A DNA stretch of 64,000 nt. It comes from Moniliella sp. 'wahieum'. Its lineage: Eukaryota. Positions 2,605 to 61,352 of the stretch are shown here, in pieces (position 1 is the stretch's first letter; each line of letters starts with the position of its first letter). The notes beneath the pieces were generated by a model, which saw only the letters and a program-made list of their open reading frames with translations, made no database searches and was not told the origin of the DNA. A program made the position numbers and the translations under genes. Where the stretch lies: the NCBI GenBank assembly GCA_003971905.1, contig RSEE01000015.1:806001-870000 (forward strand), written 5' to 3'.

Positions 2605-3309
2605 TGTTTGGGGCGGATACTGTATATATGGAGCTACTGGAGGATGGCATGAACGTGGTTGTGCAGACGGGGTATCGATTAGATCACAGGACAGCTCTCA
2701 ACTCAAACCACTCTGTTTGTTGCGAGCCGGGGTGATCCCACGCACTCCCCATGTCTCCTAGCGTCGGTTCTGTCTACATCATCATGACCGGATTGGCTCT
2801 CTCCGAGCAACCCATGTGTTGTGTCTAAACGGGGCATGTTCCCGTTTAAGTAGGACATGGATCAAGTTCCAGTTGTATGCCCGAGTAAATTGTGGCCGGT
2901 GAGTCGCTTTGTTGGTGCCCATGCTTCTATCTTGCTTCGACTTATGTCTACTTGAACCTTTTACACACCAATAAAGGGATCGAAGCTCTAGTGTGTCCCT
3001 TCAATCTGCGCGTCCTGTTCTCGCTCCAATAAGTCGATCTCTTTTCTCTTCATCGTTCCCTTTGTTCCTGGCTGACGGCAGAGAGCTCACCGCTCACCTT
3101 TCATATGGTTTTTCCTGCTCCAAGACTCTTATCTCCTGCCTGCTAAGTGGGAGAGGTTCCCCCCCCTAGTCTTTCTCTCTTGCAACAGTAAATAATGTTT
3201 TGGGCATGGTTGTTGGTGTTTAGTACGTTTAGTAGACCTAACCTCAAATTGTAGCCCGCACAGAACGAAAGCAAAAGTAAAATATCAAGCCGAGGAGCAG
3301 AAAAGAATT

Positions 3310-3841: not shown

Positions 3842-3912
3842 TAGGGGCGGCGACAAGTGGTTCCTATTCCAAGTGTTAGGGGCGGCGACAAGTGGTTCCT
3901 ATTCCAAGTGTT
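3842..3912. repeat. Perfect 35-bp tandem duplication
   Basis: taggggcggcgacaagtggttcctattccaagtgt x2. Confidence 0.9.
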
Positions 3913-3994: not shown

Positions 3995-5826
3995 CTACAG
4001 TGAGGTTTCGTGGGCAGAGGGAGTTGCTGAGCCCTTGACATGGCCGCTGAAGGAGGAGGAAAGGGGAGGAGAGCAGAAATGCCGTCGACCATTCCAGCGT
4101 TTTGGTAATACCACGTTTTGCACGGCACATCTCGATGACACGGGGTTCTGCTCAATCATCTGTTGGATCTCCGCCCACGCGTCCAGTGTCTTCGCCCTCT
4201 TGGTGCCCTTTCGGGATGCGGGAACAGTTGTGCCAGCGAGGTCTTCCTCCGGCAAGTCATCAGCATCCTCGCCGACCTCGACCTGGTTGCCCCCGGATGC
4301 TGATTCCCTGCCCCTGGTGGGGGTCGAATCTGCCTGCGCGCCCCCATAAATTTCCTTCTGCATCGCTGTAGCGAGAAGGAGGGTCACGACTTTGCGACGA
4401 GACGCCATGGGAACGAGAGCTTGCGTGTTGGTCCCTATACTCCCCCAAACCCTTCCTGCCCATGACGCAGTCTGGTTCATCCAGTCCTCCTGGTTCGATG
4501 CATCCACAGTCATGGGCTGAAATCACCGAAAGTCAATATCTCCGACTGCAAGCAACAGACGTCATGGCGTCATGGTCATATCGGGTATGTGCACACAACG
4601 TACCGCCAAATCGTAAATGCAGCGACGCATGGTGGACCAGACCGGGTCCAGGAAACTGTCAACAGGGTTTGGACAAACTGTCTTTCTCAACCGATGTGAG
4701 CCAGGAAGTGGCCCGGGTCAAAGTTAAACTCTTCGAGACCTCGGGACGAACATGCCAGTTGCCGGCGGAAAAACAAGCCTAAGTCTTTGTTGTTGCAGGC
4801 CCGCTCTCGGGATGCAGAAAAACCCATACCGCGAGCTCTCTGCACAGGGCTGTGAGTAGTGATCCGTTCGTGTAAAGAGGGAGAAAAGTCAGTACTTTGC
4901 AAGTAATCGTTCGGTTAGCGGCAAGAGCTGATGGTCCCGACCTTGTTGTGCTCCAGCAAGCGTTCGAAGTACTGGCGTGGTTGGCCATGGTAAAGCCCCT
5001 GGCGAATGATTCTTGCTTCGCACTGTTTGACATAAAGAGCTCCCGAAATTTCTTGATTTCCTCATGGAGTGATACAACTTTCCGGTGTAGCGAGCGGTTC
5101 GAAGAAATAATGGCCTGCTCCGCCGTGAAAGGGACAGATCAGGCGGGATACAAGGAATTCCTCTGGATTGACGAGACCCTCTTCTTCTTCGGCGTCTGCT
5201 GGGCGCGGAAACAAGTTGTCAACGTCAACATCCCCTCGTCTGAATCGTTGTTCATCACCGTCGTGTTCGGCTTGTTGCTGAAAAGACGCAGAACCGCTGA
5301 ACCATCTGGGCCGGGAGCCGGAGAGGGAGAAGCCGCCACACCTCTCGTTGGTTCTCAGCTGCTCCCTCTCCCCCCTCAGGCCCGCTGGTGGTCCCACTGG
5401 CGTCACCACGATCGTCCTGGATCAGTTCGTCACCTTCGAATCAGTCTCCATCATGGGCTCTGGCTCGGGGTTGATACGTCGGGTGTCCCTCGGGCGCCTG
5501 CGAGCGGCGTTGTTGGTCCGAGATGCCTGGGACCTCTTGGTGGTGCGGGAGGGAGGCATTGTAGAGTGGCGGGACTGCCTCAACAGAAAGGTCGTGAGGG
5601 GAAAGGTCGTGGGGGGAAAGGTCGTGGGGGGAAAGGTCGTGGGGGAAAGGTCGTGGGGGGAAAGGTCGTGGGGGAGGGCATGCAGTTCGCGTAAAAGGAT
5701 GCGTCTGTGTCGTCGCGTCATCCCTAGAGGCCGTACAGGGATCGAGATCTGAGATGCGCAGAGCGAGATGTGACCGTACCACCTCTTCAAATTGAGGCCC
5801 GGGGCCGCTGTCTCATCGATCATCAA
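3995..5826 (-). CDS. Fragmented hypothetical ORF, probable accessory gene of the adjacent CMC-like transposon
   Basis: Chain of overlapping minus-strand ORFs (5422-5826, 5062-5409, 4779-5033, 3995-4513), low-complexity N-terminus, charged C-terminus (KRAKTLDAWAEIQQMIEQ); divergent from the transposase. Confidence 0.35.
5587..5675. repeat. ~15-bp minisatellite (AAAGGTCGTGGGGGG), about 6 copies
   Basis: Directly visible; encodes PHDLS/PTTFP repeats on the minus strand. Confidence 0.9.
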
Positions 5827-11441: not shown

Positions 11442-12035
11442 GAACCAATGGTGAAGGACGAGGATGGCGGGAGACAGAGGAGACAGCGTACCGACTACCA
11501 CGTGATGGGGCCCGGAGCACTGGGAGGATCAGGAATGGAAGTCGACCACACGCTGCGCGACACGGGATCGCTGGAGGCGCAGAGCGCGTTCCGGAGGGTG
11601 GTGCATGCGAGCACCGCTACCCCCTTGGAACGCCGGGAGAAGGAACTGCTTCGGATGCTTGAACAAGCAGAATGCGACAAGAACGCCAAGTACCAGGGAC
11701 GCACTCAAGAGACGTTTTTCCCCCTGGTTTTGACGACGCGAGGATACTACGGCACCAAGACGGCGGGCAAGTTGTTTGCGCATTGGAAGGAGTTGGCTAC
11801 TAAGTCTCAGTGGACATGGTTCCTCGCTCGGATGTCAACCACATTCATCCGTGTCCACACGCGCTACCTAGGGTACGGGACCGGATGGCGCGAGCCGGAG
11901 GGTCCTGATATCCTGGGCGATCCCCCTGGTTCCTTGACCCTGGTGGTGCCCCCAAGTAACCCCCGCAAGATGAACGGTTAGGATTAGACGTAGCGTTCCC
12001 CCTGTCCCAGCCTTAAGCTCTGCCAATGACATGGA
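11442..12035 (+). mobile_element. 5'-truncated CRE/Cnl1-like non-LTR retrotransposon (RLE endonuclease end + 3' UTR)
   Basis: EPMV...RTDYHV...MEVDHT...KNAKY...FFPLVLTTRG RLE motifs; near-identical to the 3' part of the copy at 34422-35995. Confidence 0.8.
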
Positions 12036-13119: not shown

Positions 13120-13705
13120 GTAATGACTCATGCATGAGTCCTACGCCTGGGTGAGCCTGAAGGCCTGAGGCTCAGGCCTGAGGAGGGCCTGATGAGCCTG
13201 AGGCTTGTAACCGGTAACCGGTAACCGGCGGTAATGTAATAAGTACCAAGTGCCAATCGCCCCCAATTAAGCGCTGTGAGACGCGTGACATATGACATGC
13301 GAGCGCGCGAGAACTGTCCAAAGGTACAGGATGTATCAGACTAACATAGGATGGATGGTGCAGACCGTTGGGTAGTACGAGGTACGACGCACTAGAGTTC
13401 GTAGAGTTACTAGCTACTAGTTAGTAGAGGTTGAAAACAATACATCCAGACCAATTAAAAAGTGTTACACTGTGACGCGTGACGCGTGAGATGGAGATCT
13501 GGCAAAAAAGAAGAATTGGAATATGCGGAGAAAGTGAGACTGTGTGGTCCGCGGGGGCCACGGTGACCGGTGACCGATGACTAGTGACGCGTGACGAGTG
13601 ACACGCGTCTCGGACGAACGGAAGCTTGACAGCTTGACAGTTTGACAGGTGCGAGTCACCGGTGACATGTGAGCGCGAGCGCTCTGCGCTGGTGCATGAT
13701 GAGAC
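13120..13705. repeat. Cluster of 7-bp periodic xyTNAy'x' palindrome arrays
   Basis: (GGTAACC)3 near 13207, CCTGAGG runs, (CGTGACG)2 near 13472, phased TGA array 13564-13601, CTTGAC runs. Confidence 0.85.
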
Positions 13706-17411: not shown

Positions 17412-18002
17412 AAACGTCCAACGTCACTCAGTGCTCTACGTGTGGCCAAACTCTCTTTTTTATGTCTCATTGGTGTCTTTTGATCTCACGATCCCACCTG
17501 TTACGTGCCCCTTCTCGGTCTCACGTCCCTTTCTCCACTTCGGTCCCCCTGTGATTTCTTGCCACAGTCCATTGATGTGCTCCGACTGAGCTCAGCCGCT
17601 CAGCGCCATCAACTTTTGTTTCTTTTACCCCAGTAAGCTCGAAGAGCTTGTTGCCTCATGTTTTACGCCTTGCGCTTCACGACCGGCGTCATTCCCATGA
17701 TGCATGCCCCTGAATGATATCACCGACTGTGGCTCCCTTTCATTTTCCCTTATAAACCCACCTTAGCTCATTTTGCTTGTCCTTTTATTTTCTCCGTAGG
17801 AGTTCTAAGCGGGCAAAGCGATCGCATCAGTCCGAGATGGCACGATACTGCTATAATGGATTCCACAGCCCCCGGTGGCAGGGGAGTTGGAAAAGGAAAT
17901 TCGTAGGCGCGTATAAACAGGGGATGAATCAATTATCCCCGGATGGGCCTTCCATCAACATGTTAGTACTAGTAGTGATTCATTCCAATGTTAAACGCTA
18001 CT

Positions 18003-21000
18003 TGTTGGGACCCGTGGTCCCGTACTTAGGCCAAGGCGCCTCATCACCCTTCACCCCTGATTTGTCCTCCGAAGCCTCCACGTGTATACTCAGGCTTGTC
18101 TGAACCCCTGTCTCTAGGTGTGGCACAAGGCTTAGACCTTAACCACCACCATCGCGATTGCATTGCTCTACATTTCCAGAGGTTCTTCACCCAATCCCTT
18201 GGGTTCCTCCGGTCTTACAGAGTTACAATCCTCTTGACGCTCAGCCCTGAGCCTTCCACTCTTACACTCTTCGGTCCTCCGCTGCCGGCCCTATCCACAA
18301 GCGCTTGCTCGAACTGCGTAAGCTAATGGCAAGCATCATGAGCTCTCAGACTCAGGAGTCTTGGTTCAACTCCTCAACCCCTACTTCACCAACTGCCGGA
18401 GCAGAAGAGAGCACCACTCCCGTCGGAGTTGACCACGCCTCCCCGCCGCTGACACCATCGCGTGAATCTACCCCTACACCTCAACCCACCCCCGTGGGCC
18501 CCGACAACACCGCGAACGACGTCGCCACCCTCGCCGACCGCATTCGCAACATGTTCAAATTGTTTCCCGAACACATCACCCTCAAACAGCTACAGGACAC
18601 TGGTATCAAGCTTGGGTACAGCGAAAAGACGACCACAGAAGCCATTGTCATGTTATCATGTGAGAATCCACCCAATGCTAGCAAGAACGAAGGTGCCTTA
18701 TCGTCAACTCCGGCCGTCGACGACAACCCGTGGGCTTTGACTCCCGACAAGCTCCTCCGTAGTGCCACTCGCAGCAACGTGCCGTACCACGAGCGTTTCC
18801 ACAACAACAGCTCGTTTTGGTTATGGACCCGGATCTTCCTCCCTCGTATCCAGATTATCCCTGGAGCGCGTGAGCATCTGGAACAGGGCAAGGCCCTGGA
18901 CGGGTATAACGCAGAACTGGACGCTCACTTGGCCAACATTCTACTCCCGTGGATAGACTCCGACGTCGTCCAGCAGATCACCGGCGATGGCACGCCGGCT
19001 CTAGGGTCTGCATACTATCATGCTCTGCGTGATTTGTACGGCACCGTTTCAGACACTGAGATCTGTGATATCCTCATAAAGGTTCTCACTCTCAAAATGG
19101 GCACCAAGTCGGGCCGCCAATACCTGAATGAGTTCACTGTGGCGGTAACCCAGTACGAGATGACGTCCAAGTCCAAGCTGGACGAGATTGGTCTAGCACA
19201 GATGCTACGGAAAGGCGTTACTGATCAGGGGTGGTTGCACCTCCATCGTAACAGCAGCTACGCCGAATTGCGCCGAGCAGTGAGCGAACTCAAAGGCTCC
19301 AACTACGGCAGTACCTCCAGTTCAAGCCCAGCTCCCTCCAGTACGGCCCCTTCGGAAGCCACGTCGCACAGCCAAACAAGCAGTACGGTGACAGGCCGCG
19401 GACGAGGCCGAGGTGGCAGCGGGTACAGAGGAAGTCACCGTGGTGGCCAACGTGGCGGCCACTTTAGCCGGCCGGCTACGACAGCCCAGACCACCTCATC
19501 TGCCCATGCAGTAACCCCTATGGCAGCCACTACACCACCCAAGCCAGCCAACCTCCCTGCGCAACACGATTCAGGTGCGAGACCATCCGTATTCAATGAA
19601 CGAAGTGCGTTTATCAATCTTCGTCCACACCGCGAGCCCATAGCAGTGGCAAACGGACAGATCGCATACACTGAAGGCATTGGCACCATCTCTATGTACA
19701 TTCAAACCCAGAACGGAGCCCCTATCCGCATCCACCTACCCGGCAGCTTGTACTGCCCCACCTTCCCGACCAACCTGCTCAGCGCTTACCATCTATCTAT
19801 CGCAGGCATTGGCAGCTGGATCCCTCCAGGTGGCCATGGTCTCTATCTCGGACGACACGGCGAACCTTTTCGTCTCGCCGCCGACTCAAGCTATTCCCTT
19901 ACTCTGGCGCCCAATACGACAGCCACAGCCAACAGCGCCACTTCGCTACTCAACCTTGATGCAACCCTGGTCAAGGTGAAAAACGCCCACATCCGATGGA
20001 ATCATGCACCTCTAGATCAACTTTCATCCCTCACGTCGGATGACCCAGCATTCGAACGGGTCAACAGTGGCGACATCGCTTTAGTCCGGTCCTCGTGGCA
20101 CTGTGCACCATGCGCATTAAGCAGAGCCACTGCCCCACCCCACGCCACGACTGGACGCCCAATCCGAACCATTCGCCCTTTCTCTCTCCTCCACCTCGAC
20201 GTCCTTGACATATCCCGCCAAGGCGGCGGGGTCATACTTACGCCCTTATCATTGTCGACGACTTTACGCGGTATACCTGGACGCTACCCCTGGTGTCCAA
20301 GGGTGATGCCACAGCCGAACTTCAAGCCTTCATCCGGCGCGAGCATCGCCAACATCCCGACCGCCCCCTTCAGACGGTCCGCTCTGACAATGCGCCTGAA
20401 CTCACCACCGCAATGGACGAGTTTTACTGCGAGCTGGGAGTAGTGAGCGAGCGCACCAATCCTGGCGAAAGTGCGTCCAATGGGGTCGCCGAACGCGCCA
20501 TAAGATCGATTACGGATCGCGCTCGACTCATGGTAATCGCCAACAGATTGACTCCCGACGAGTGGTGGGAACACAGCTTGTTGGCGGCCACATATGCACA
20601 CAACCAGTCGCCGCCGAAAGCACTGGGTGGGGACAGCCGATTTGTCCGGTACCATGGCTTCAAACCCTCCCTTCGCATGCGCGGTTTTGGCACTCTTGCC
20701 TACCTGCACCTATTGCCCAACCAACGCGAGGGCGGCAAACTTGGTCCGCGGGCCGTCCCAGCAATGTTGGTGGGTTACGGGCACGGCCGCGGTTCGAAGG
20801 GGTGGCTCTTTGCCATCCACCAGGACGACGGCCAAGTTGGATTCCGTTGGAAAAAGCCGTCCACCTGGACGCATGTCCCGTACACCACCGAATATCCCAC
20901 GCACTTTCATCTGGACCCCCTTGTCCCTGCTGGTGGCGGAGAGGTGCGGGGGGGCGGAGAAATGGGTGCTGGTGGTCAGACAGCTCCCCACCCCGGCGTG

Positions 21001-23556
21001 TGCGTTTTGCGATAGATGAACTGACCCGCGATACTAATGGTAAGAAAGACAATGCCCCCCATGGAAAAAGAAATTAAAAGAACGAAAAACAGAGGCACAT
21101 CGCCCGGCTCAAGCCAACGAAAATGAGAATTCAGAGCCTGGCCCCACTCCCACCAACTCCAACCCCCCACATGTATCCCCCCAACCTGTTGCATCTGACC
21201 CCGCAGGCATGGCACAACGCCAGGCAAAGCAAGCCGAAGAAAATGAAACTATCACAGAAGATGCCGTTGACACTGGCCACCAAGTCCTGCTTTCCCCTCC
21301 CTCTTCCACTTCCCCTTCCTCTCCCGCCCTATCCCCCTCCCCTCTCTCCCCCCCGACACGCTCGCCCCCGTGACCGTGCCCCTGACCGATACAGCCGTCC
21401 CCGCACTCGTGCGTCGCAATCCCGTTCGCCAAGCGCGTATCAACGCTCCACCCCTCGACCTGTCCATTCCAGCCAACGACAATTTGCGCGATGGCACCTT
21501 TTCCCTGCTCGTCAACAAGGCCCCTAGCATCTTTGGCAACCCGGCCGCCCTCTCCGCCCTAGGAATGCAGGCTTTGGTGAGTATTTTCGGACCAGCGCCG
21601 GACACATCCATGCTACCTGCTTCGGAGCCAAGCTCGCCCCCCATTGCACTCGCAATCGAATCCGCGGCAAGTGACACCGAGGTCATACTGACCACCGATG
21701 GGGTCCCGGTGGCCCCCAAGAACATCAAGAAGTTGGTGGGTCACCCTGCCTTTGATGGCGTACTCGAGGCAATGCGCCTCGAGCTTCGGCGTTTTGACGA
21801 GCGTGACGTGAAGGAAGTTGTACCCATCCCCCCAGGGATCAAACCCCTTCCCGGCATGTGGGTCATAGGTACTAAGACGGATGCGGATGCTAACTTCCTC
21901 AAGTACCGTGCCCGCTACGTTGTGGGAGGGCACCGGCAAGTTCCTGGCACATGGGCGAAATCTTTTGCTCCTGCCGTTCGTACTGCTGCCGTCAACACGC
22001 TAATTGCGTTGGCCGAAGCTGATGGCCTCCACTTATTTTCTGCCGATGTGGAAGCTGCCTACCTCTATGCCGATATCAACGAGCTCGTCTATGTTCGACC
22101 ACCCCCCTTCTTCCCAGAAGCGCCCGGTCATTGCTGGAGACTCAAGAAAAGTCTCTATGGCCTGCACCAGAGCGGGGCCAACTTTGGAGATTGGCTCCGC
22201 ACTTTCCTTTGCGACCGACTCCACTTCACTAGCCTAAAATCAGAGCCTTGCCTGTTCATACGTCGCACCGAACCTCTTGGCCTGATCCTAATCGCCGTCC
22301 ACACTGACGACTTTTTGGTCGCGTGTCGGTCCCAAGAAGCGTATGATGAATTCTTAGTGGAATTAAGGCGCAGCATCCAAATTAAGTCCAACGGCCCCCT
22401 ACGTTTCCATCTCGGCTGCCAATACGACCGTATCGATGGACGACTGTACATCAGCCAACCCAAATTCATCGCTGAGACGCTTGCCGCGCATGACATATCA
22501 CCTCACCGGCCCCGCTACCTTCCAATCGGCCACCAACTTCCGCCTCCCAAGCGACCCGAACACGAAAAGCGTGCCACTCGAGACGAGCACCGTGCCTACC
22601 GTTCTATTGTCGGATCCAGCTTGTGGGCGGCTCGTATGTCCCGGCCTGATGCCCTCTTTGCGGCTACCTTTTTAGCGCGGTTTATGGACGACCCGTCCGC
22701 CGCCCACCGACGCGCAGCGGAGGACCTATTACGTTTCTTCGCCGGTACGTCTGACTACTCTTTGTGCCTCACACCCAACCGATCTCGCCCTCTACTCGAG
22801 CTGCACACCGATGCCTCCTTTGCATCAGACAAGAGCAACTCTCACTCCGTTTCGGGCCATGTTGTTTTTGTTTTCGGTGTGCCTGTATCCTGGGGCTCCA
22901 AGTCCCAAAATCAAGGTGTGAGCAACACAGCAGCATCTGAATACCTAGCCATGGGAGATGGCCTTCGAGATGCTCTATTCATTCGCAACATACTGTTTGA
23001 ACTTGGTGTCTGCAAGGCTAATCACCCGATTGAGCTCTTTGTTGACAACACCGCTGCCAAAGCGTTGGCCGAAAAGCTCGGCAGCCTAGGCAAAATACGG
23101 GAGATTGACGTCTCGTACCACGAGGTGCGGGAACGCATCCACCGAGGCGAAATTAAAGTCCACTACACTCCAGGTGCACACCATCTCCCTGACTGGTTCA
23201 CCAAACCTCTTTCTCTTCCCAAGATCATTTCTGCGCGTAACAATTTCGATTTGGCTTCTCTTTCTTCGCGCTGATCCCCTTTCTACTTTTCTTTTGTTGA
23301 TGGCCAACGGGCTTCTTTCGTTCCCTTGGCCCGGGGGGGTGTTGGGACCCGTGGTCCCGTACTTAGGCCAAGGCGCCTCATCACCCTTCACCCCTGATTT
23401 GTCCTCCGAAGCCTCCACGTGTATACTCAGGCTTGTCTGAACCCCTGTCTCTAGGTGTGGCACAAGGCTTAGACCTTAACCACCACCATCGCGATTGCAT
23501 TGCTCTACATTTCCAGAGGTTCTTCACCCAATCCCTTGGGTTCCTCCGGTCTTACA
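18003..23556 (+). mobile_element. Full-length Ty1/copia LTR retrotransposon
   Basis: 217-bp LTRs 18003-18219 and 23340-23556 (TG...CA, identical by eye); perfect TSD CTACT; G-run PPT; gag-PR(HDSGA)-IN(HxRWNH..CAPC, LHLD, RSDNAPE, NGVAER)-RT(KKSLYGLHQSG, HTDD)-RH(TDASFA, PDWFTKPL) in copia order. Confidence 0.96.
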
Positions 23557-23777
23557 CTACTAGTAACTAGTAACACAGCTACGACTCCTTCTTTGACTTT
23601 TGCGAAGCTACGCAAAAACCCTGTAAAATCACCATGGTGAGTTGGGTTTCAGACACATTTTTTCGGGCGAGGCACATAGTGAAACCAATCGTCATACGGA
23701 GATGCAGAAGAAGCAATGCCGCTCAAACAAGGATTAATGGTGTGGATGCAGCTCAGCATACATCATGTGTGTATTGT

Positions 23778-27497: not shown

Positions 27498-29727
27498 TGG
27501 TTATTTGACAGGAGTTGAAGATGTGGGAAAAGATGGGGATCATATTCATCCAGTGGAAAGAGGGCAAGGGGGATATATGATGCCTCGGAGAAGAAGAGAA
27601 CATGGCGAGCTAAGTCACACGGATAGGAAAGGGGAGAATAGTCAATGGGGAAAACAAGGTCTCGAACAAACCACAGAGACCCGTCCAAACCTGTTGGTGA
27701 GTAGAATTGTGACCAGGTGGATCTGACCCCGACAGGCTGCCTCATTTTTGTCCCTAACCACAAATACTTCTTTCCATCATCCAAAGTGCATTGGTTGTTC
27801 TTTCAGTTTAGTTTTGTCTTTTCCCTGCGAGCTTGCCATATGTTCTTCTGCTGGGGGCGCAAAAAATTGTTGGATAGGATGGGGATTCAATCCCGCCGGT
27901 CCTGAGACGGTTGGGACCTATTATTGCAAATGCCGCTTCTCTGGGCTACAAATGTCGTTTCTCTGTTGGGCTACCTACTCTGACGCCGGTGCGGTCCTGC
28001 TTTTCCCATCCGTATATATATTTGGGGAGAGGAACGACTGGTCTCTTCAGCCCTCAACTGGATAATGTATTGTGTTTTGGGGCGTTGACTCATTTCAGTA
28101 CAAGGAACTAACACTTCCAGCCTCACTATCATACGAGGCATTCTACTAGTAAATCATATGGTAGCCTCTCCGACGAAAGACTCGCTCCCTGCAATACAGT
28201 GGTACTTACTAGTCTCTCCCTCAACAATTCCAAATCTGGCGAGTTCGTGGCCATGTGAGCAAGCGACTTGGTGCTTTCTTCTGAAGCACCCTCCTGCTTC
28301 CTAACGCCACCATCATCCATCTCTCGCCCGCAATTGATCACCTATGGTACTGCCCTATATACACCTGAACATCCACATTTTGCGAGGTCTCCATATATAG
28401 CCACAGATGCATCTCGAAAAACCAAAGTCTCTCTGTTAGAGGGTACTGCTACGGTTCTCCTGTGCGGCCCTCAATGGATCGGTGATACTCGCCTGGCCGA
28501 GCGGAAGAGTTCCGCTCGCAGGCCGCGCACGCCTACTCGCTCCTTCCTTCTCTCTCTCCTTTGTTCTTCCCTTCAGACGTTGCTTGAGACTTTTGTGGCT
28601 TATATACCACTTTGCCTTCACGCCTTGTCTGAAGGTACGCCTCTGCTTCCTTTCTTGACCTGTTGCTCCTCACAAGCAGACGTTGCTTGAAAAGACTTGC
28701 GGCTCACCCACTTTGCCTTCAAGCTTCAAGCTTCACGCCTTATCTGAAGGCTGCTTTGCAGCTGATCCATAGGATCGCGAGTGTTCCCAAGTCGCTCTCT
28801 AGCACTCTCGACCATCGAGTATTGAAGCGTCAAGTTGCAAAACGCTGCCACTACTCATCACCCAAGCACATATACCACTGGTCGCCGCCCCGACGATCAT
28901 CAAACATCATGCAATGCCTCATGCATCATGCATGTGCGTCACTACCCGGGCTCGATGCATGTGAATCTTCCCACGGGGCCTGGGCCTGATGAAGCTTGAA
29001 GCTTGAAGCTTGAAGACATGAAGCTGAGAGGCTGATGCAGAGAGCTGAGGCTGAGAAAACCAATATTCAGCCGCTGAAATTCAGCGTTCAGCTGGTTCAT
29101 CGATCGACGAGTTCATCAATCACGATCAACGAAGCCTTTATGATGGCACAGCCCCGCAGTAATGCACGTATACCGTCTTCTCCCCTACCAGAGACTCAAG
29201 AGGAGGACCTTGCAGGACCCGTTCAAGTAGTGGTGGTGCACTGCATTAGCGTGGAAACGCCGTGTGACAAATGTGGCCGAGTGCATATAGGACGCGGAAA
29301 CGTGACAAAATGATAATGATGCAGACAGCAGCATGATAAGTAAGCGACGTAATTTAAACGTTCAATGAGGTCAGTAGGCGCTAGTAGGCTAGTAGCTAGT
29401 AGGCGTACGCCACGCGTCATGCATCATGCCCCTGCATCACGCGTCATCCCGTCGGTGGCTATTCTCAATTGATTCATTTAAGGGCTGGATCCTTAATCAT
29501 GATGCATGATGCAAGAGGATCGATGATCGATGACACACGTAATTGGAGCGCCTCGCAAGCCCCGAAGAGCCTGAGACCGCCCCAGGGCTCAGGCTCAGGC
29601 TTTTGAGGCAAGACATTTGTGACACATGCGTTCGGGGTTGACCGAACCAGCAAAAAAAACTGTCCGATTCGCTACCGCCGCTTCATCAACCTCATCGCGA
29701 ACGCAACCACCGCCATTCATCCATCCG

Positions 29728-32350: not shown

Positions 32351-34421
32351 GGGTGATAAATGATGTCTTACGGAGTCCGGGGTTAATTTTAATCGGCGTC
32401 TCTCGCCACTGGCCCCCACAGCAGGGCGGGGGCGCTGTAAACATGTAAACGCCAAAGTGTGGAACTTACTGAGAACTGAGAGAAGTGAGAGCCGAGAAGT
32501 CAGTCTGAACGCAAGGAGGAGGCTTTCTGTGACGCCACGCTGGTGTAGTGGCGACGGTAGCTCAAGCCCGGAACCTTCGCATTCTCTCATTCCTTGCAAT
32601 AGTATATCCTTCTTTTGGCGGGCAGGAATGTTCTGTATAGTAGCCTCTGTTAGTAGCTCATGTGCAACGCAATAATGCACCATCAACTTCCTGATCTCTG
32701 GCCTTCTACAGCTGCATGGTCACTACCTGTGCATAAGGTCCAGCGGTGTATTCAGAAAGCTATACATAGCTATAATCGAAATTTCTTGTGCACAATCTTG
32801 TGGGCCTTGCCCACCTTGAATTTTGTAGGAAGTCCTCACATATCTATCCGGAACCTTGTCACCAGTATTTTCGTTAGCTATGTATACTAGTTCGCACCAC
32901 CCCGTGTCCCGCCAAGAGCACGATGTGATCTGACAAGAATCCTTTAGGCATCAGTTTATGTCGCAACAGGTGCCGCGGGCAAGCGGTCTCTTGGCCCACA
33001 TCTTGTTGGTGAACTTACCGAACATGGGCGTCACGGCGTCCCCCCTCCAATTTCTTTGGAATTAAGGCCTCTTGCGGGGCCGATCAAATACATGCATGCA
33101 ATACACCATCTTAACTGCCTGCTCTCTGGTGTTCAATACACTCAGAACACTGGCTGCACGGGGCATGTGCAGGCCCCGTGCCTGTTGACCCTAGTGCCGG
33201 GGCGCGGTCACTAGACACTAGCCACTGTGACCCGTATTCCCGTATATGAGAGGCTGATCAGTCCAACATCTGTTTCGGAAACCATACCTGGTCGATCTAG
33301 ATCGTGTCTCCCTTGCTAAGCCCTCACCCGCTCACCGTAAAACGAAGCTTGATCGTGGGGAAAAGAAACTGGGTCCTCATTGGCTGTATGATAGAGTACG
33401 AGATTGAGGTCCCGACGGATTGGGACGCGATAGAATGTAGGGGTGGGATTCGGGCACCACCGCACTTGAGAATGCGGTCGATGAAAAGGTGGTCGGCTCT
33501 CCAGTATACATTTTATATTGTTAGGCGTGGGATGTATGTACTAGAGGGGGGCAGAAACGTTCGAGATATGGCCAATAATGGAGCTGAGTTTCAGAGCCTG
33601 GTGCCCTGAGATTCCCAGAAAGGTTTGGAAAGGCGCGGGAGGGGAAAGAACGAAGTAGCGGGGCGTCTCATCTCCACAAAGAGCCTAACGCGCATCATAG
33701 TTCCGATAGCTACCAGAGCCTCCGGGATCCTCCCGTCTCGGTCGGGTCGAGGGACCCAACGTACCTATGGGAGTAACGAACCGCGCACCACTGGCTGTGG
33801 AGGGTTATATGACCATCGTGCGTGTTGTTGATTGATGCTGCCCTTCCTTCTGGTTTAAACGGCACCATTCCATATGCAATCTGAATGAATACCATCGACA
33901 TTCAAAGCAAGATTCCTTCAAAACGAGAGTAAAAGGAGACTCGCGGTAATAGGGCGAAGAGTTGGAGGAAAAAGATAAGTCGCAGGAGGATACGGCGGTC
34001 GATGTGGGGATCAGACTCACTTGATCACGTTCTTTGTCACCAAGTTGTCTGGCCCCCTTAATTTGTTCTAGACCTGTTTCCCCCTTTGGATCATGTCCCT
34101 CTTTCCCTCCAGTGATTTAGCTCTGTTCTCTTGTTCTCCGAGGCTATATAACCTCGCTTTCCACTCGATGAATATGATCCTCATCCTTCCCCCATTCCAT
34201 CTCCTTACGATGGGTAATCTCAGGGTGCGGTTGCCTAACTGATTATATATTGTCCTTGGGATCCATAAGTCCTGGGTAGCCATGACGAATTCCCGGATAT
34301 CACAAAAGCGCAGCGGTGGTGGAGACCACCCCCACCCCCCTCACAATCGTCTTCCTTTGCGACCTAGCAGGAAGAAGGAGAGATTGTAGCAGTCACGGAG
34401 ACTCTGCATGGCTAAGTAACG

Positions 34422-35995
34422 TCCATTTCATTGGCAGACTTAAGAAGGCTGGGACAGGGGGAACGCTACGTCTAATCCTAACCGTTCATCTTGCGGGGGT
34501 TACTTGGGGGCACCACCAGGGTCAAGGAACCAGGGGGATCGCCAGGATATCAGGACCCTCCGGCTCGCGCCATCCGGTCCCGTACCCTAGGTAGCGCGTG
34601 TGGACACGGAGGAACGTGGTTGACATCCGAGCGAGGAACCATTTCCACTGAGACTTAGTAGCCAACTCCTTCCAATGCGCAAACAACTTGCTCGCCGTCT
34701 TGGTGCCGTAGTATCCTCGCGTCGTCAAAACCAGGGGGAAAAACGTCTCTTGAGTGCGTCCCTGGTACTTGGCGTTCTTCTCGCATTCTGCTTGTTCAAG
34801 CATCCGAAGCAGCTCCTTCTCCCGGCGTTCCAAGGGGTTGCGGTGCTCGCGTGCACCACCCTCCGGAACGCGCTCTGCGCTGCCAGTGATCCCGTGTCGC
34901 GCAGCGTGTGGTCGACCTCCATTCCTGATCCTCCCAGTGCTCCGGGTCCCATCACGCGGTAGTCAGTGCGCTGTGTCCTCTGTCTCCGGCCATCCTCGTC
35001 CTCCACCATTGGTTCGTTGTGGACATGGGTGTCGGGAATGGAGCGTAGGAGCTGGAGAATGGGCTCCCGCACTGCGTCATGCAACGCTCCAAACTTGGCC
35101 TGGGAGCGAGTGCAATACATGATGTGCTCCAGCGAGGACATGACACCGCACTTGCACATGCTGCGCGTGGTGCGGCACAGCGTGCGGAGCTGGAGACCAA
35201 CCTGGACCTGCTGGTCGGAGAGCCTGAGGTATGGGACGGACGGAATGGCGGAGAGCCAGTTGTGGCTCAGCGGGTTGCTGTGCTCAACCACGTGACGACC
35301 ATCGGCAGCGTCCAGCTTCTGGAGCAGCTCCTGTCGACTTTTCTCCCACATCTCGCGGCAGCGCTGGCGTTGCTTCGTAAATGCGTTGGCCTCTGCCGTT
35401 TGCGGTCCCGAACGGTCAACATAAGTGGTAATAAGATAGTCGTTGACCTCGTTGGCCGCGGCACGGGCGTGGGGCGCGATAACGAGTAAAGCGGGCTGCC
35501 GCATCCTCCTAGCCGGAGAGGCAGGCTCATGAGCATGTCGAAGTGGTCGTCCTTGGCACCTTGGGGATCCTCGTCGCCCGGATCCGTCTGAACTCCGTAC
35601 AGATGAAGGCATCGATCTCGGCCAGCACTTCGTCTAGCTCTCTTCCATCTGCATGGTGCGGAGCAGGTGGCGCAGCTTGGTCTGAGTGCTGAGCCGCCAT
35701 AGTAAGAGGCGTCCCTGGCGGGTGATGCCATCAAACTTAGGCATGTTCTCCTCAGACTGGCCAGTTGGGCCCGGAGCCACGATCGACGACAGTCTACCCC
35801 TCCCACACAAGTGCCCAGAACCTGCAGACCATCCTCCCGGATCTGGTCCCGGTCCCGCTCGACGCACTTGCGCAGGTTGAGCTTGAGGCCTGACGCGTCG
35901 TCTTCCAAAATCTCCGCAGCTTGGCCGGTAATGCCTGGCTCTGGACCGAAAATGGTAATGTCGTCCAGGTATGCCATCACCAGGATTTCCACCTT
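34422..35995 (-). mobile_element. 5'-truncated CRE/Cnl1/MoTeR-like non-LTR retrotransposon (RT C-half + Zn knuckle + RLE)
   Basis: MAYLDDIT, GLKLNLRKC, VLGTCVG, KLRHLLRT, SLPLRLGGCG, WLSAIPS..LRLSD, CKCG..EHIMYC, HDAV..EP..RTD..EVD; frameshifted. Confidence 0.88.
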
Positions 35996-38462
35996 TGGGA
36001 AATCAACCTAATTATACGTTGTAAAAAACAACAAAAAAACAAAAGCCACCACGTCCGCGGTTCCCTCCCGTTACTACACAGCACGGGGCGAATGGTTAGT
36101 AGCTTTTGGTGATAGCGTACTTCTAAGACCGCCGCTAGTGAGCCTAGGCATGAGGTATTCGGTGCCCTTCTTGCATCTGCTCTCCTCGGATGTGCAATCA
36201 AGAGATCAAGTGATACCAAGTTCGCGCCCTCCTGCATCATCAACATATTAATTAGCAGGGAAAAGAACCTACTGGTGCGACGAGACTCGTTCGTGTTGGT
36301 AGGGGGATTTGGGAGGCGAAGATGGCATGGGGCAGGGCACGGGCTGTGGAATGGAAACCTGATGCGGAGCAGGAAGAGAAACGCCCATCCCCGTATGAAC
36401 GATGAGAGGCTGCCACATTACCCTACTCCCCATATTACCAGAAAAGGCGATGAATAGTGGAAGATGAGAGGAATGCAAAGGGGTGGTTCCACACTACTGA
36501 TATATTGAGATGAGCAACAGAAACAACGGCGTACTTGTCGAGTGCATTCTGGTTTTGAATGGCCGACGCATTTGATCTACTGTATGGTATGCGCCAAACC
36601 ACTGCTATAACGTAGGGAGTAAAACTGAAGTACAGAATCATGGTAACATCAATCTTCTAAGAGATGCTCCTTCACCTTTCTCCTTGGCCGCATTTTCTCT
36701 GTCGTCACAGCTAGTACCTCTCATTTTTCTCTTCTACTGCACAGGCGCCAAGACCGCATCTTTTACTCTGGGTATACCGCATCTGGGCGGCAGTGTTCGC
36801 TCAACTGCGAGATTTTCCCTCTGAAGACCCAAGAAGACGGCTTGTAGTACTGGTCTTTCATCAGTAGTACCAAATATTCAGGGAAACTATGTACCAATCG
36901 TGAATGATTATGGGTGTCTGGCTCGACATACGAGGCGTGTGAATGCAGTGATGCGATGCCGACTATCAAAGCGCAGATGCTCGCGTTTGAGGCCAAAAGA
37001 TGTGATGAGATCAATTGGATTATGCAGTCTTCTGCACATCAAACCGTTGACATGAGTTGACAAGCCATGCGGACACAATGGTGCGAAAGCGGACTCATTA
37101 CAAGAGGCAAGAGGGAGATCGACGATGGTGGCGCTATATTGCAGAGAGGTCCGGGTCAAGCACGTCTCAGGTGGTCCGCAGCTGTGAATGTGAGGGAAAG
37201 CGGAAAGTGCACAATGCAGTGGCTGGCCAGCAGTGGCCACTAACCCCTCGGCACTGTTCTATGGAGTGTCCGCGACAGTGCATGCTGCATCCCCCTGCTT
37301 CCGACCCAGACAGGCTTCTCCACTGGAATAGACCCATTCTATTCTACCCACATTCTCCGGCCGTCTCTTGCATCGTGCAATTCTGCAGCGTTGGCCGATG
37401 ATCGAATGATCGATGATCGATGATGCCAAGGACAGCCGCAGAGTGCCTACGTAATAAAACGGCTTCCCCAAGCCGCCCACATTGTGCAGGCAGGGAGGGG
37501 CACTGTGTGTGGACATGTGGACTGCGTATAGAGCTGCGCTGAGGCGCTAGGCCTGAGGCGCTGAGGAGTTACTAGTTACTCAGACTCAGTAGTCACTAAG
37601 TACTGATGGCTGATGCATGTGATGCATGCAGACGAGCGCCTGATGGGTGATGCGGATGTTAGGCGGGCGACTTGTGACTTGTGACATGTGACATTGCGAC
37701 GGCGGCATCCAGGCACAGGGCAGCTCTCTGCCTGGATGGGCCGCCCCCACAGGTGTGGTGCGGGAGGTGGGGGCACCGCGTTTGGCTGCTGGGGGGCTCC
37801 CTAGACTGCCTCTGTGCTGTGTGTCCTGGTCGTGCTTCCTCTGGCTCGGGGGCGGCGGGGTAGGCGGGGGCATCAGAGGGCACGCGACGGGGGTGGGCAC
37901 GAGGCGGGTGCAGCCCATGCAGCAGGCAGCACGCAGCACCCAGCGCCTAGCACGCATTATGCAGCGGCGAATGGGCCGGCCAGGCTAGACTCAGTGCTCG
38001 GTACTCAGACGCCCATATTCGGATCCCAGATCTCACATCGCACACGGCTGGGCTGTGCCCAGGTTGTGCGCTGCGGTGCTGCATACTCCGACTCGCCTTG
38101 GGTCGGTCTCCCCACTCTCGCTCTCTCGCCGCTCTTCCCCCGTCCCCTCGTCGACTTGGACCGCCGCCCCCTGTAACCCCCCCGCCACCCCCCCCCACTT
38201 GCACCCCACTGCCACCTCCACCTCCATCTCCACCTCCACTGCCACCTCCACCCCCATCGTCATTCCTGCGCCCTGCCATGTTGGGTACCCACAGCCACAC
38301 CCCGCGCCTGCATCCACCCAGGCCAGCTCGCCTCTTCGCCCTGCCCCCTCTCCCGCTGACAGCGGCACTCCCAATCGCAGGTGGCGCTCTGTCTTGGGCT
38401 TCCCCAAGCGCTCGTCTCTTGCTCGCAGCGCCTCCCAACGCAGCGACGACATCCCCCCCCAC

Positions 38463-51277: not shown

Positions 51278-51859
51278 CCAGATGGCGGGGCGGCTGCGGG
51301 GCGAAAGGACGGGGGACTCTGGTGCGACTGCGTTCCTCCTTGGAATCCATATACGACTGGGCCACGAGACAGACGTGTCGAGAGCCGCGTGTAGACGCCG
51401 GTGGTTTTCTGAACGTTCAACACGTGCAACGCTGGCCAGCGGCTGGCGTGATGCGTGATGCATGATGCATGGTGAAGCTCGATGAAGCTGAAGCGGCCCG
51501 CTCAGCTGAAAACCCGGGTCGGAGGTGGAGCAATTACCTCAGCAGAGCGCAACACTGGCGCGGTGCGGCGGGGCGAGCGACAGCCAAGCACGTGGAGCAG
51601 ATCCGTGGAAGCACCGCCCGTCCCCCCTGCAGGCGACCGCCAAGCCGCCGAGCGGGCTCCAAATCGTCCGAATCCGCTCGGGCTCTGCTGTGCGGTTGCG
51701 CTCCTCTCCCACCACCCGCTTCCACGCACTCCCACCGCGCGATGGATGCGGCCAGCGGCCGTCAGCATGCGCCCGGGCACGCATCGCATGCCGTCTACGC
51801 ACTCGTTTTCCCCCATTCCCCGCAGATATACTCAACCCCGCCCCCCCCACCATGTCACA

Positions 51860-53991: not shown

Positions 53992-56796
53992 TGCGCCCAT
54001 CTGCAATCGCTTTCCTCCTATTCGCCGTTCTGCCAACAGCAAATGTGTGTGTGCATTTCTATCATTTACAACAAGTGTTTTCAAATGGTAAGAGATGATG
54101 GGACTGGTTGTAATTGGTCGGGTCAGCGATTGCAGGCACACTTGATGCCCCTCGTTCAGAACGTTCATGCAGTTCATGGACGGGTATAGATTGAGCGAAA
54201 CGGGATCGGACATTTCCTGTTTGAAGTTATGGTGCCTCATCGCCGGCCTCAACACATTCACGGTGTTTTCAAAAATGGATTCGCCTACCACTTATTGCAC
54301 GACGGGGTCATCGACTCTTCGTCCGTCATGCGCGGGCGCCGCCAGGGGGCCCGCCCTGGGGGTTTAAGGGGTACAATCCCTCCGAGGTCCTAAGGTTCGA
54401 CTCACGGTAGTTACGCGCTTGGGCTGGTTGGTGGTTCCGAGCGGAGCTAGGGACAAGGAGAAGCCTCTCGGCGTATAGCAGAGGCGGCTGCAGGTGACCA
54501 TGGGGGAAAGCCACGAACCATTGCTAACAGACAGGGACTAAAGGGAAACAAGGCAACAGAGAAAGAACGGGGAGAACAGGGGAGAACAGGGGGGACGGCT
54601 GCCGCAAGGACAGCCTAGAAAGGTAAGGTAAACAGGCATGGGGCGTGTTAATGCGAGGACAAAGGCCTACGGAAAGAAGAAGACAGAGGGATGTGATCTA
54701 TTCCAAGAGAGGAGCCCGTTAGGGGCAGAACATAGAGGAGAGTCGGATAGAACAGCGCGATGCGTGATGCGTGATCAGCTGCATGCATGATGGCGCTGAC
54801 AGCCCCACCACGACTCGACGCTAGGATCCGACGAGATTGGAAGAGTGACAAATCAAGAGCCAGCTGGCTAGGAGGAATCTGAGCCGAAAATGGGCTTGAT
54901 GCGGGAAGTCTCCTCAGCCCCACCAGGATCCGGCGTGAGCGTGAGGTAGCGACCTACACTGGAGCGTTGAACCGTATACGGTAGGAGCTTGGTAAAATCA
55001 TTCGCGGGGTTCTCGGTTCCAAGAACCTTGTGCCACAAAATGCGTCCCGAATCGACATGCTCGCGGAACCAATGGTTGCGAATGTCCATATGACGAAGGC
55101 GTCCAATGAAACCAGGGCGAGAGATAATTGACAGGGCAACAGCCGAGTCGCTATAGAGATCCACCGGACAGTTGGAAGGTACTAGTTGAAGCTCGACCAT
55201 GAGGTTACGAATGCGGAGAGCGTCGCGGGCGCCCTCACTAATAGCCATCATCTCAGCTTCAGCGGTCGACATTGCCGTAGTGGTCTGCTGGGCGCTGCGC
55301 CAGTGCACTAGGGCGCCAAAAACAAACACAGCGACCCCTGTTACCGACTTGCGTGTGACCTTGTCGCCGCCCCAATCGCTATCGGTAAATACGGCAATAG
55401 GAGGTGCCGTTCGATTGATCCTGAGACGCAGAGACCAATCCAATGTACCACGGAGGTAGCGCAGGACATGTTGTGCGGCGCTGCGGTGTGCAGCAGAGGG
55501 ATCCTTGTTCCAACGACTGAGAAGATGTACGACAAATGACAGGTCGGGCCGGCAGGTCTGCGCGGCCCAGCTGAGGCTCTGCACAATCGATATATAGCGC
55601 TTATGCTCGGCGACAGTGGCAGGAGCTTCGTCTGGTGGACGTGGCGGGAGAGGTGTATCAGGATTGATAGGCAAACGAACAGGGTTGCACTCGAGCATGT
55701 CGGTGCGGGCGAGTAAAGCTAACAGAAATGCACGCTGGTCGCAGTCAAAATCATCAGGGCGAGTAACATAGTGCACACCCAGCATCTTACTGAGAGGACC
55801 CTTGTCGCCAATCTTGATGTTGAGACCGAGTTCGTCCATGAATGCGTCAAAAGCAGCTTGGGACGGGGCCATGGCCATTCCGTCATCACAGTATATTGCG
55901 AGCATGATGGTCGTATTCGCTCGTTTGCGTATCCATACGTCCTGTTCTGTTACCGTCGAGCGGAAACCAATATCTCGTAGCTTGCTGGCGAGGTGGCGGT
56001 GCCACGCAGCGCCGGAGGCTGCAAGGCCATAGAGGGACTTCTTGAGTCGCCAAACGTTTGCTTTGTCGGTGAGAAAACGATCGGGAGGCTTAACGTATAC
56101 CTCATAGGGAATGGGTGCATGGAGATATGCACTCTTGCAGTCAAAATAATATGCCTGGAGGCCTTGCGCTTTACCTCCCACGGCTACGGTGCGAAAAGAC
56201 TGATGTGCTGCGCCACTCGAGAATGTGAGGGCCTTGGGCAACTCACTTGTATCCTCCTGGTTTCCTTGAACCACAATACGGGCTTTCCGTTTGAGGAACA
56301 TATTCTCTGGGTGACGCCAACACTGTAGACGGTGCGGGCACCCAAGATCTTCGTTCCGGCCGGAGGGCGTGGCACTTCTTCAAAGGCATCCATGGATCTG
56401 AGCCCGTCAAGCTCAATGTGTTCGGCCTGGCGCCACTGGGGCCACTCAGAGGTGGCCATTGCTTCACGCTCGGTCCGAGGGGCAAGGGGCACACCGTCAG
56501 CAGTGGTGCCGACAGTCGGGGGAGGGATGCGGAAACGGCGTTGCCGGCGGGGAATGGCTTTCTTTTTCGGGCTTGGTGTAAGGGATGCGGTGGCAGGATC
56601 AGGGGAAGAAACAGTAATAGTAGGGGGGATTGGGTGGGACAAAGGGGGATGACGCGCGGTGCGCGCATGGCCCGTTGGGCTCCAATCGGGATCAAGCTCG
56701 GCTGGCGGCTCATCCGTCAAGGGAGGCGCATGCGCATCCTTGGGTTGATAGAAATCAGGGGGGCGACGCGCCCGAGCCGGATTGCGACGGGGGCAG

Positions 56797-56860
56797 CTTC
56801 AGCCCCACCAGGCGTGGAAACTTCAGCCCCACCAGATGTGGAAACTTCAGCCCCACCAGG
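56797..56860. repeat. 24-bp tandem repeat, ~3 copies, in the copia IN-RT linker
   Basis: cttcagccccaccag...gtggaaa repeats encoding GGAEVST. Confidence 0.85.
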
Positions 56861-60770: not shown

Positions 60771-61352
60771 GAGGTGATGGATCTATTCCAAGAGGGCCCG
60801 TTAGGGGCAGAACATAGAGGAGAGTCGGATAGAACAGCGCGATGCGTGATGCGTGATCAGCTGCATGCATGATGGCGCTGACAGGGCGACTATGTCGCTT
60901 GGATGCGTAGACGTGATGATCGCGCTAGCGGTTAGCATCATCTCGGGATCTTTCGTAAAGGATCCACAAGAAAGAGTTTAGCATTTTGATTCCGGAGTTT
61001 ATTCCCAGCGGGCCCTAGGTGCTCTTACCAGCCGGAAACAGAGAGGGCGGTGATGCTGGGAACGTGAAGGGTGGCGGCCGGAGTAAGGTGTTTGCTGGCG
61101 GGGCAGAAAGACTGCCGACTGCCAGCAGCCCAGCATCGCCACTCCCTACAGATCTCAGACCCTTCCAAGGCCATGGACGAGAGGGGGTAGGAATGCCCGA
61201 GAGGCGCAGGCGGCTGCCATCGACATCATCACACGCTCCTTGTTTCAATCAGGCCTCAGGCGCTATCACGTGGGGGTGGGGGAGAGGGACCCGTGGCGCG
61301 TGACGCGTGACGCGTGACGCGTGACGCTGAATAGAACGTTGAACGTTCAAGT

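Follow-up and report, generated by a model that had tools for sequence, protein, structure and literature searches.

Flank-templated 7-bp additions at TNA-centred heptamers in a 64-kb eukaryotic window, possibly the scars of hairpin-type break repair

Where do the extra bases of a short tandem array come from when the same site, still without an array, lies beside it? The question is raised by two neighbouring copies of a ~62-bp non-coding segment that differ at one site by exactly two heptamers. They lie in a 64,000-nucleotide stretch of Moniliella sp. ‘wahieum’ DNA (assembly GCA_003971905.1, contig RSEE01000015.1, positions 806,001 to 870,000), the whole of which is called the window here. 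Counts without another scope refer to this one window, and window shuffles or computed expectations served as the chance baseline. A preliminary description of the pair had proposed that the added bases were written de novo from the local flank, so that xy-TNA becomes xy-TNA-y'x'-xy-TNA (y'x' being the reverse complement of xy), and that this step accounts for arrays with a common grammar but differing units. Both proposals are supported by the window as a whole.

Copy 1 (28574-28635, plus strand) is the unexpanded one. It holds the single TNA-centred heptamer CT-TCA-CG at 28616-28622, whose flanks are identical to those of the array in copy 2, and it reads cagacg...ccactttgcCTTCA (CTTCA at 28616-28620) followed by cgccttgtctgaagg. 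Copy 2 (28677-28750, plus strand) reads cagacg...ccactttgcCTTCA (CTTCA at 28717-28721), AGCTTCA, AGCTTCA and then cgccttatctgaagg. Its perfect array CTTCA-AG-CTTCA-AG-CTTCA occupies 28717-28735 (19 bp, or 7 × 2 + 5, a minimal locus of the grammar described below with n = 2); Tandem Repeats Finder (TRF) and our own scan agree on it as CTTCAAG × 2.7. The array runs from x to the A of TNA (phase 1-5) and is then followed by CG, as in copy 1. Set side by side, the tails are ...CCACTTTGC-CTTCA-CGCCTTGTCTGAAGG in copy 1 and ...CCACTTTGC-CTTCA-AGCTTCA-AGCTTCA-CGCCTTATCTGAAGG in copy 2. Copy 1 thus lacks 14 bases, the unit AGCTTCA twice (28722-28728 and 28729-28735). The preliminary description had the coordinates, the letters and the 14-bp difference at 28722-28735 exact to the base. 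It was also right that the first extra unit AGCTTCA was not copied from the preceding 7 bp, GCCTTCA, and that its AG is the reverse complement of the CT ahead of TCA.

Outside the indel the copies share three blocks in the same order, matching at 14/14, 14/14 and 19/20 positions. A global alignment gave 50 identical positions among 54 aligned, with indels of 3, 2, 3 and 14 bp. To judge by these alignments, the similarity is beyond chance and the copies are true paralogues. We infer that CT-TCA-CG in copy 1 represents the target state, xyTNAzw. A perfect 9-bp inverted repeat, CCTTCAGAC / GTCTGAAGG (28570-28578 / 28627-28635), encloses copy 1 and is only partly kept in copy 2. A second CTTCAAG array lies in the opposite orientation at 28990-29015, 254 bp downstream of the first. 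It is 26 bp long (7 × 3 + 5), reading CTTCA-AG three times and then CTTCA on the minus strand, or TGAAGCT × 3.7 on the plus strand. Nineteen of its nucleotides are 100% complementary to the array in copy 2 and its flanks are unrelated; it may have arisen independently, or it may mark a small inversion with one breakpoint inside an array.

The same construction recurs throughout the window. Perfect arrays of period 7 with at least two copies numbered 42, against 3.2 in shuffled sequence (20 shuffles). Strong enrichment was confined to this period: there were 5 arrays of period 8 against 0.7 in shuffles, 46 of period 6 against 13, and 62 of period 5 against 52. The unit is a rotation of the palindrome xyzNz'y'x' in 27 of the 42 cases, a form taken by 10.4% of all heptamers. 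Palindromic units in period-7 runs of at least 12 bp (53 rows) are centred on TGA in 22 rows, TCA in 17, TAA or TTA in 6 and other triplets in 8. When both strands were searched for the 12-mer xy[aNc]y'x'xy[aNc], 79 positions had T..A as the centre pair, and any other pair had at most six.

The two bases between the repeated pentamers are equally constrained. Direct repeats of nnTNA with a 2-nt spacer occur 110 times (5.1 expected), those without a spacer are at chance (5 vs 5.9), and spacers of 1, 3 and 4 nt are mildly enriched (23, 24 and 16, respectively, vs ~5 each). Of the 110 spacers of 2 nt, 79 are y'x', which makes the rule valid window-wide. Seven consist of z and then x', five of z and a different base, and two simply repeat the zw that comes next (a single locus counted on the two strands), which leaves 17 of other kinds. 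Sixty sites show the pattern TNA-N4-TNA, the two N being identical and N4 a palindrome, where 1.97 are expected. At least one half of the N4 pairs as reverse complement with the adjacent outside dinucleotide in 55 of these sites (on the left only in 15, on the right only in 16, on both sides in 24), leaving five that match neither flank.

The grammar is present at 40 loci of the 64 kb in total (~0.6 per kb). Nineteen, among them the array in copy 2, are ‘minimal’ in that non-matching bases stand on both sides. Period-7 runs of at least 12 bp take up 2010 of the 64,000 bases (3.1%), and the longest arrays reach 4.4 units. At least 11 different inner tetranucleotides are in use, T.A alone being fixed. 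Intergenic DNA upstream of genes holds clusters of arrays, at 12.2-15.3, 28.7-29.6 and 37.3-37.7 kb. An outside control was provided by 423.5 kb of metagenome contigs (121 loci of 122 stretches reported), picked solely for carrying three GGTGACC units and unrelated to the window beyond the array. Further TNA-N4-TNA sites with a palindromic N4 have a density of 0.047 per kb in these contigs, where the window has 0.80 per kb. One unrelated contig, L034 (4167-5137, GC 0.51), has units of GATCATC, GGTGACC and CTTGAAG inside 1 kb, and the process that adds heptamers may be active in other eukaryote-like genomes.

Is y'x' made when the array is born, or are these arrays what decay has left of perfect palindromic repeats? 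All loci within two mismatches of (xyTNAy'x')2 were scanned. Seventeen were perfect, 19 had one mismatch (0.1 expected) and 35 had two (7.0 expected). The single mismatches fell in the outer two positions in 13 of the 19 loci and in the inner ten in 6, where uniform decay predicts 4/14 outer (P = 0.00036). Seven further loci had both mismatches inside one terminal dinucleotide (0.1 expected). Likewise, TNA-centred runs of exactly 12 bp span x to the A of TNA, or the mirror of this, in 9 of 12 cases (P = 0.0011). Decay of perfect dimers was rejected as the source of the grammar on the outer-position bias: because the mismatches sit in the outer two bases, y'x' was made at birth. Nor are pre-existing palindromic heptamers the source, since isolated TnA-centred ones outside arrays are not enriched (194 vs 180 expected). 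Spacer content, flank matches and the outer-mismatch bias thus support, window-wide, the claim that y'x' is written from the local flank when a heptamer is added. The usual precursor of an array is a non-palindromic xyTNAzw, of which xyTNA is repeated and y'x' written between the two; the flagged pair shows the same step.

Several looser forms were observed beside the strict grammar. In a chain at 13561-13602, TGA recurs every 7 bp and the intervening tetramers are palindromic or nearly so (CCGG, CCGA, CTAG, CGCG, CGAG). It looks like what would be expected from successive events using either product or flank. Relatives with periods of 8 and 6 (13623-13648, 37536-37566, 29044-29054 and 29587-29597) comprise CTTGA-C-AG and GCTGA-G-GC repeats and GCTGA-G / GCTCA-G hexamers; these resemble the grammar event with one base more or less. 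There are also non-palindromic arrays, GCTCACC at 3085-3098 and GCGTGAT/CGTGATG at 51446-51461, 54759-54775 and 60841-60857, in which base 7 is the complement of base 1.

How could such a step come about? The sequences show one mutational process that has added 7 bp at a time at ~40 sites, the 14-bp difference being two of its increments. Tentatively, and at a little short of an even chance, we read the arrays as hairpin-type scars of a cut-and-paste transposon with a 7-bp target-site duplication, and the pair as a gain of two such units in copy 2. The mechanistic part of this reading (the staggered break, the hairpins and the transposon) is one that we infer from the products. The addition itself takes place at a T-N-A-centred heptamer xyTNAzw, with N mostly C or G, and turns it into xyTNA-y'x'-xyTNA-zw. 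In this product xyTNA is repeated directly, and the pair at the junction reverse-complements the neighbouring xy (or zw, on the other strand) and is not a copy of zw. A fully palindromic site, xyTNAy'x', grows into a perfect heptamer array.

The chemistry envisaged would start from a 7-bp staggered break centred on TNA, giving a target-site duplication around the inserted element. Upon excision, both flanks would be closed as blunt covalent hairpins. Host nucleases would open these 2-3 nt off the tip, two bases changing strand (P nucleotides) with no net gain or loss; openings at 2 and at 3 nt would give the same string, because T pairs with A. End joining would then retain both 7-bp copies, the strands being joined without loss. 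As both copies would be kept and nothing gained or lost, the net change would always be +7. A non-palindromic target would yield two products, xyTNA.y'x'.xyTNAzw and xyTNAzw.w'z'.TNAzw, which are one grammar read on opposite strands. The numbers of N4 matches to the left flank only and to the right flank only fit these two products of a symmetric, two-ended break. Where zw already equals y'x', both ends would bear the identical self-complementary 4-nt overhang y'x'xy, and clean ligation would give a perfect 7-bp tandem duplication, open to repeated growth. The cohesive overhang shared by palindromic targets can explain why whole-unit arrays grow longest. Later gains and losses of units could also come from ordinary slippage or repeat hits. 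An opening 1 nt off the tip would give xyTNAz.x'.xyTNAzw, a product that fits the non-palindromic arrays GCTCACC (3085) and CGTGATG (51447, 54763 and 60845).

One suggestion of the preliminary description is modified by this scheme. It had spoken of an inverted and then direct copy, which is better described as a 7-bp, TNA-centred duplication of the target xyTNAzw with a flank-templated junction dinucleotide. A one-sided copying event is disfavoured because its mirror product, with revcomp(NA) as the spacer, is found in 0 of the 110 cases. A 5-bp duplication with one-sided P nucleotides was rejected on the same count, although it gives the same string. A 3-bp duplication of TNA and the 8-bp chemistry of hAT elements were rejected by derivation, as neither can yield the observed string.

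For the source of the palindrome, the preliminary description had named hairpin opening or a template switch. Hairpin opening agrees with the sequences: an even palindrome without a spacer, y'x'|xy, beside a direct repeat is the mark of covalent hairpins and P nucleotides, as known from V(D)J joining. The switch onto a nearby inverted repeat was rejected, since the reverse complement of xyTNA lies within 40 bp at only 1 of the 19 minimal loci (chance ~0.07 per locus). The sole case is the array in copy 2, with TGAAG 9 bp downstream. There, CCTTCA (28716-28721) and TGAAGG (28745-28750) form a short inverted repeat around the site, with the corresponding arms at 28615-28620 and 28630-28635 in copy 1. 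The predicted single-strand folds of the paired sites are weak (-3.9 and -7.5 kcal/mol; z -1.6 and -1.9), and selection for stable hairpins was set aside on account of such weak folds.

Several known systems share part of these features. PIF/Harbinger elements use an extended palindromic target centred on T-N-A, make a 3-bp duplication and excise mostly precisely. The arrays resemble them in their palindromic, TNA-centred target and differ in the duplication; by derivation, a 3-bp duplication cannot yield the y'x'xy insert, whose bases derive from the base pair outside the triplet. Elements of the hAT superfamily make an 8-bp duplication, nTnnnnAn, and nick one base into the flank, which gives odd palindromes, while Transib and RAG make blunt hairpins and 5-bp duplications. 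In quasi-palindrome template switching of the Ripley type, palindromes are created or perfected from local sequence with the help of a nearby inverted repeat; in contrast, such a repeat is present at 1 of 19 loci here, and that process has no fixed 7-bp addition. Micro- and minisatellites growing by slippage have whole-unit length changes and perfect tandem repeats in common with the arrays. They lack the palindromic, TNA-centred grammar and the period of 7, and the first added unit here is no copy of the adjacent 7 bp.

The closest likeness is to transposon footprints, as far as the excerpted literature describes them. Cleavage by hAT, Transib, MULE and RAG1 leaves hairpins on the flanking DNA, which are opened by host enzymes and end-joined with footprints, according to the excerpt of one article (PMC5499845). 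In the excerpted report on Ds in Candida albicans, all footprints were short deletions or palindromic P-nucleotide insertions, two types were dominant, and hAT palindromes were odd, with the complement of the flanking base at their centre (PMC5873905). On these partial accounts, hairpin-type footprints (hAT, Transib, MULE), the P nucleotides of V(D)J joining and the arrays have in common a retained target duplication and short palindromes templated by the flank. They also share a few dominant products accompanied by minor variants 1-2 bases longer or shorter, which in the window are the spacers of 1, 3 and 4 nt. Two footprint features are borne out directly, namely a fixed increment, here of 7 bp, and junction bases that are the reverse complement of the flank. 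The arrays differ from hairpin-type footprints in combining a 7-bp duplication, T and A at positions 3 and 5, even palindromes and tandem pile-up with no element in the window. A hAT footprint is not matched: the period is 7 and not 8 bp, and the junction y'x'|xy is an even palindrome in which the terminal x has its complement.

Fungal DNA transposons with 7-bp target duplications are on record, namely hAT7 in Pucciniales rusts and Kyakuja in Laccaria, as given in an excerpted survey (PMC12730594). Within the scope of that excerpt, they have a fungal host and a 7-bp duplication in common with the arrays, and the superfamily of hAT7 makes flank hairpins. They are described there in Basidiomycota, whereas the window has a weakly ascomycete-like look. 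No homologue of either was found among the 57 open reading frames (ORFs) of the window scanned with Pfam. Among titles and abstract openings outside subscription journals, none dealt with palindromic TNA-centred heptamer arrays in fungi or with footprint arrays of this kind.

A number of observations weigh against the transposon reading. The window was searched for terminal-inverted-repeat elements with any 2-10-bp duplication and for TNA-centred 7-bp duplications flanking inverted ends, and both searches returned array artefacts only. A DNA transposase was absent among the 57 scanned ORFs, the matches being Copia parts and host genes. We know of no nameable superfamily that joins even palindromes, as blunt hairpins give, to a 7-bp duplication with T and A required at positions 3 and 5. 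Forty loci in 64 kb are a very high number for footprints, and repeated hits or slippage are needed to build arrays as long as 4.4 units. Palindromic and half-palindromic targets are in excess, with perfect, one-mismatch and two-mismatch dimers at ~8, 13 and 7, respectively, where 1:6:9 is expected, so an added assumption of target or repair bias is required. Leftward extension by y'x' was seen in 8 of the 40 loci (2.5 expected; P = 0.003), and decay of longer, three-unit arrays explains this only in part, as at 29515, where the first unit has one mismatch. Lastly, slippage can remove exactly two units from a perfect array, and the polarity of the pair is unproven. The CTTCAAG array might have preceded the ~62-bp duplication, copy 1 losing two units by slippage or by microhomology-mediated deletion between CTTCA repeats. 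Removing 14 bp between such direct repeats would yield copy 1 exactly, unit loss is common in perfect short arrays, and with 4 of 54 aligned positions differing, a 19-bp array that has stayed perfect since the duplication is unsurprising. We nevertheless regard this reversed order as rather unlikely. Parsimony mildly favours a history in which the segment was duplicated first and copy 2 gained its two units later, because this would take one or two gains, whereas an array-first history would take the same gains, the duplication and then an exact loss of two units. Furthermore, by the window-wide rule the single CTTCACG would be the ancestral state of the site in either case. A third copy of the segment, a possible outgroup, was absent from the window, and a search of metagenome contigs for the orthologous locus through the neighbouring carboxylesterase exon gave 76 pattern matches, of which none was confirmed.

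The same grammar might also have another author. Endogenous breaks at nnTSAnn in open intergenic DNA could be repaired by inverted-then-direct copying without any mobile element, the agent being a domesticated transposase, another hairpin-forming nuclease, or a template-switching replication or repair polymerase. The absence of a transposon or transposase from the window search, the very high array density with its clustering upstream of genes, and the fact that all features together fit no known superfamily would sit well with such an agent. Yet fold-back by a polymerase needs a loop, which makes the spacer-free even palindromes y'x'xy hard to obtain, and covalent hairpins are their typical source in V(D)J joining. 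The single inverted copy at 19 minimal loci excludes the nearby-repeat switch as a general route, and the constant +7 with a symmetric need for T and A resembles a dimeric enzyme with a fixed stagger. An agent of this sort is doubtful in our view. Much less probable still is an ordinary microsatellite, in which palindromic heptamers already present would slip via hairpins and the seemingly de novo AG would be a coincidence or a later mutation. It is true that slippage can alter copy number from two units up and that the longer arrays consist mostly of whole palindromic units. However, isolated palindromic heptamers are not enriched over chance; had perfect dimers decayed, internal mismatches should outnumber terminal ones by 10 to 4, against the 13 of 19 found in the outer dinucleotides; plain duplication of a non-palindromic TNA heptamer occurred at one locus only; the first added unit AGCTTCA differs from GCCTTCA before it; and the predicted hairpins are weak (z -1.3 to -1.9). 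Selected cis-regulatory arrays, as tandem binding sites for dimeric transcription factors, would agree with the mainly intergenic position upstream of genes and with the palindromic form that dimeric factors prefer. This we consider hardly credible, as inner tetranucleotides sharing nothing but T.A are too varied for one factor, and outer bases that follow the local flank are a mutational and not a binding signature.

Returning to the hairpin-forming transposon, the process could be self-reinforcing. An enzyme of this type, from an undescribed 7-bp nnTSAnn transposon family or a domesticated descendant of one, may turn TNA heptamers palindromic and so ratchet sites into arrays, although we think it unlikely that this extended version holds in full. 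The palindromic product would be the best substrate of the enzyme, offering cohesive y'x'xy ends and making two targets from one, and the arrays (~3% of the window, mostly intergenic) would be a readable record of single break-repair events. The flagged pair alone is one anecdote; what makes it valuable is that it spells out a rule borne out elsewhere in the window. If the transposon reading is true, the arrays would amount to a dense natural archive of how a fungus repairs double-strand breaks through hairpins, and each site would record the target, the hairpin-opening offset and the outcome of joining. The target rule of an unknown enzyme and the hairpin-opening preference of its host would then be testable from sequence alone, as would the manner in which a class of microsatellites is born, a long-standing question usually answered only by ‘chance proto-repeat plus slippage’. 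The arrays would also add to the ways in which mobile elements can reshape promoters and then leave.

As to the setting, the window is eukaryotic and its source most likely a filamentous fungus. Host-like ORFs identified with Pfam include a FYVE protein, a protein kinase, a histidine phosphatase and a metallo-beta-lactamase-fold protein. A sugar transporter ORF at 15.6-17.4 kb groups in a protein atlas with fungal clusters, among which Ascomycota are commonest; a homologue search added a single match at 74% identity. Carboxylesterase ORFs lie at ~29.6-31.5 kb, and the flagged interval is non-coding DNA ~0.9 kb upstream of them. A ~170-bp repeat forms an inverted pair of ~76% identity (27510-27700 / 34030-34205) enclosing 6.6 kb that include the flagged region and the carboxylesterase gene. 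The pair was considered as transposon ends (27.5 / 34.2 kb) and rejected, its edges being too decayed for a target duplication to be read.

Two Copia elements were recognized. One is bounded by identical long terminal repeats (LTRs) of 217 bp each (18003-18219 and 23340-23556), as seen from Pfam parts and the LTR match, and the other, known from Pfam parts, is decayed (~54.7-60.9 kb). The former is flanked by a 5-bp duplication, CTACT (17998-18002 / 23557-23561), and its insertion point is the left edge of an ACTAGTA × 2.3 array (23559-23574). That array is older than the very recent Copia insertion, since an element with 100% identical LTRs inserted at its edge. Copies of ~597 bp, inverted to each other and 95.6% identical, occur at 11442-12035 and 34422-35015; they differ by substitutions and 1-2-bp gaps, with no indels of 7n. 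The second adjoins an ORF (34.4-36.0 kb) that has a YLDD-type reverse-transcriptase-like motif and no Pfam match, and we read the two copies as fragments of a non-LTR retroelement. Unrelated, longer tandem repeats are present as well: a 15-mer, GAAAGGTCGTGGGGG, repeated six times (5586-5675), a perfect 35-mer repeated twice (3842-3912), and a 24-mer in 2.7 copies (56797-56860).

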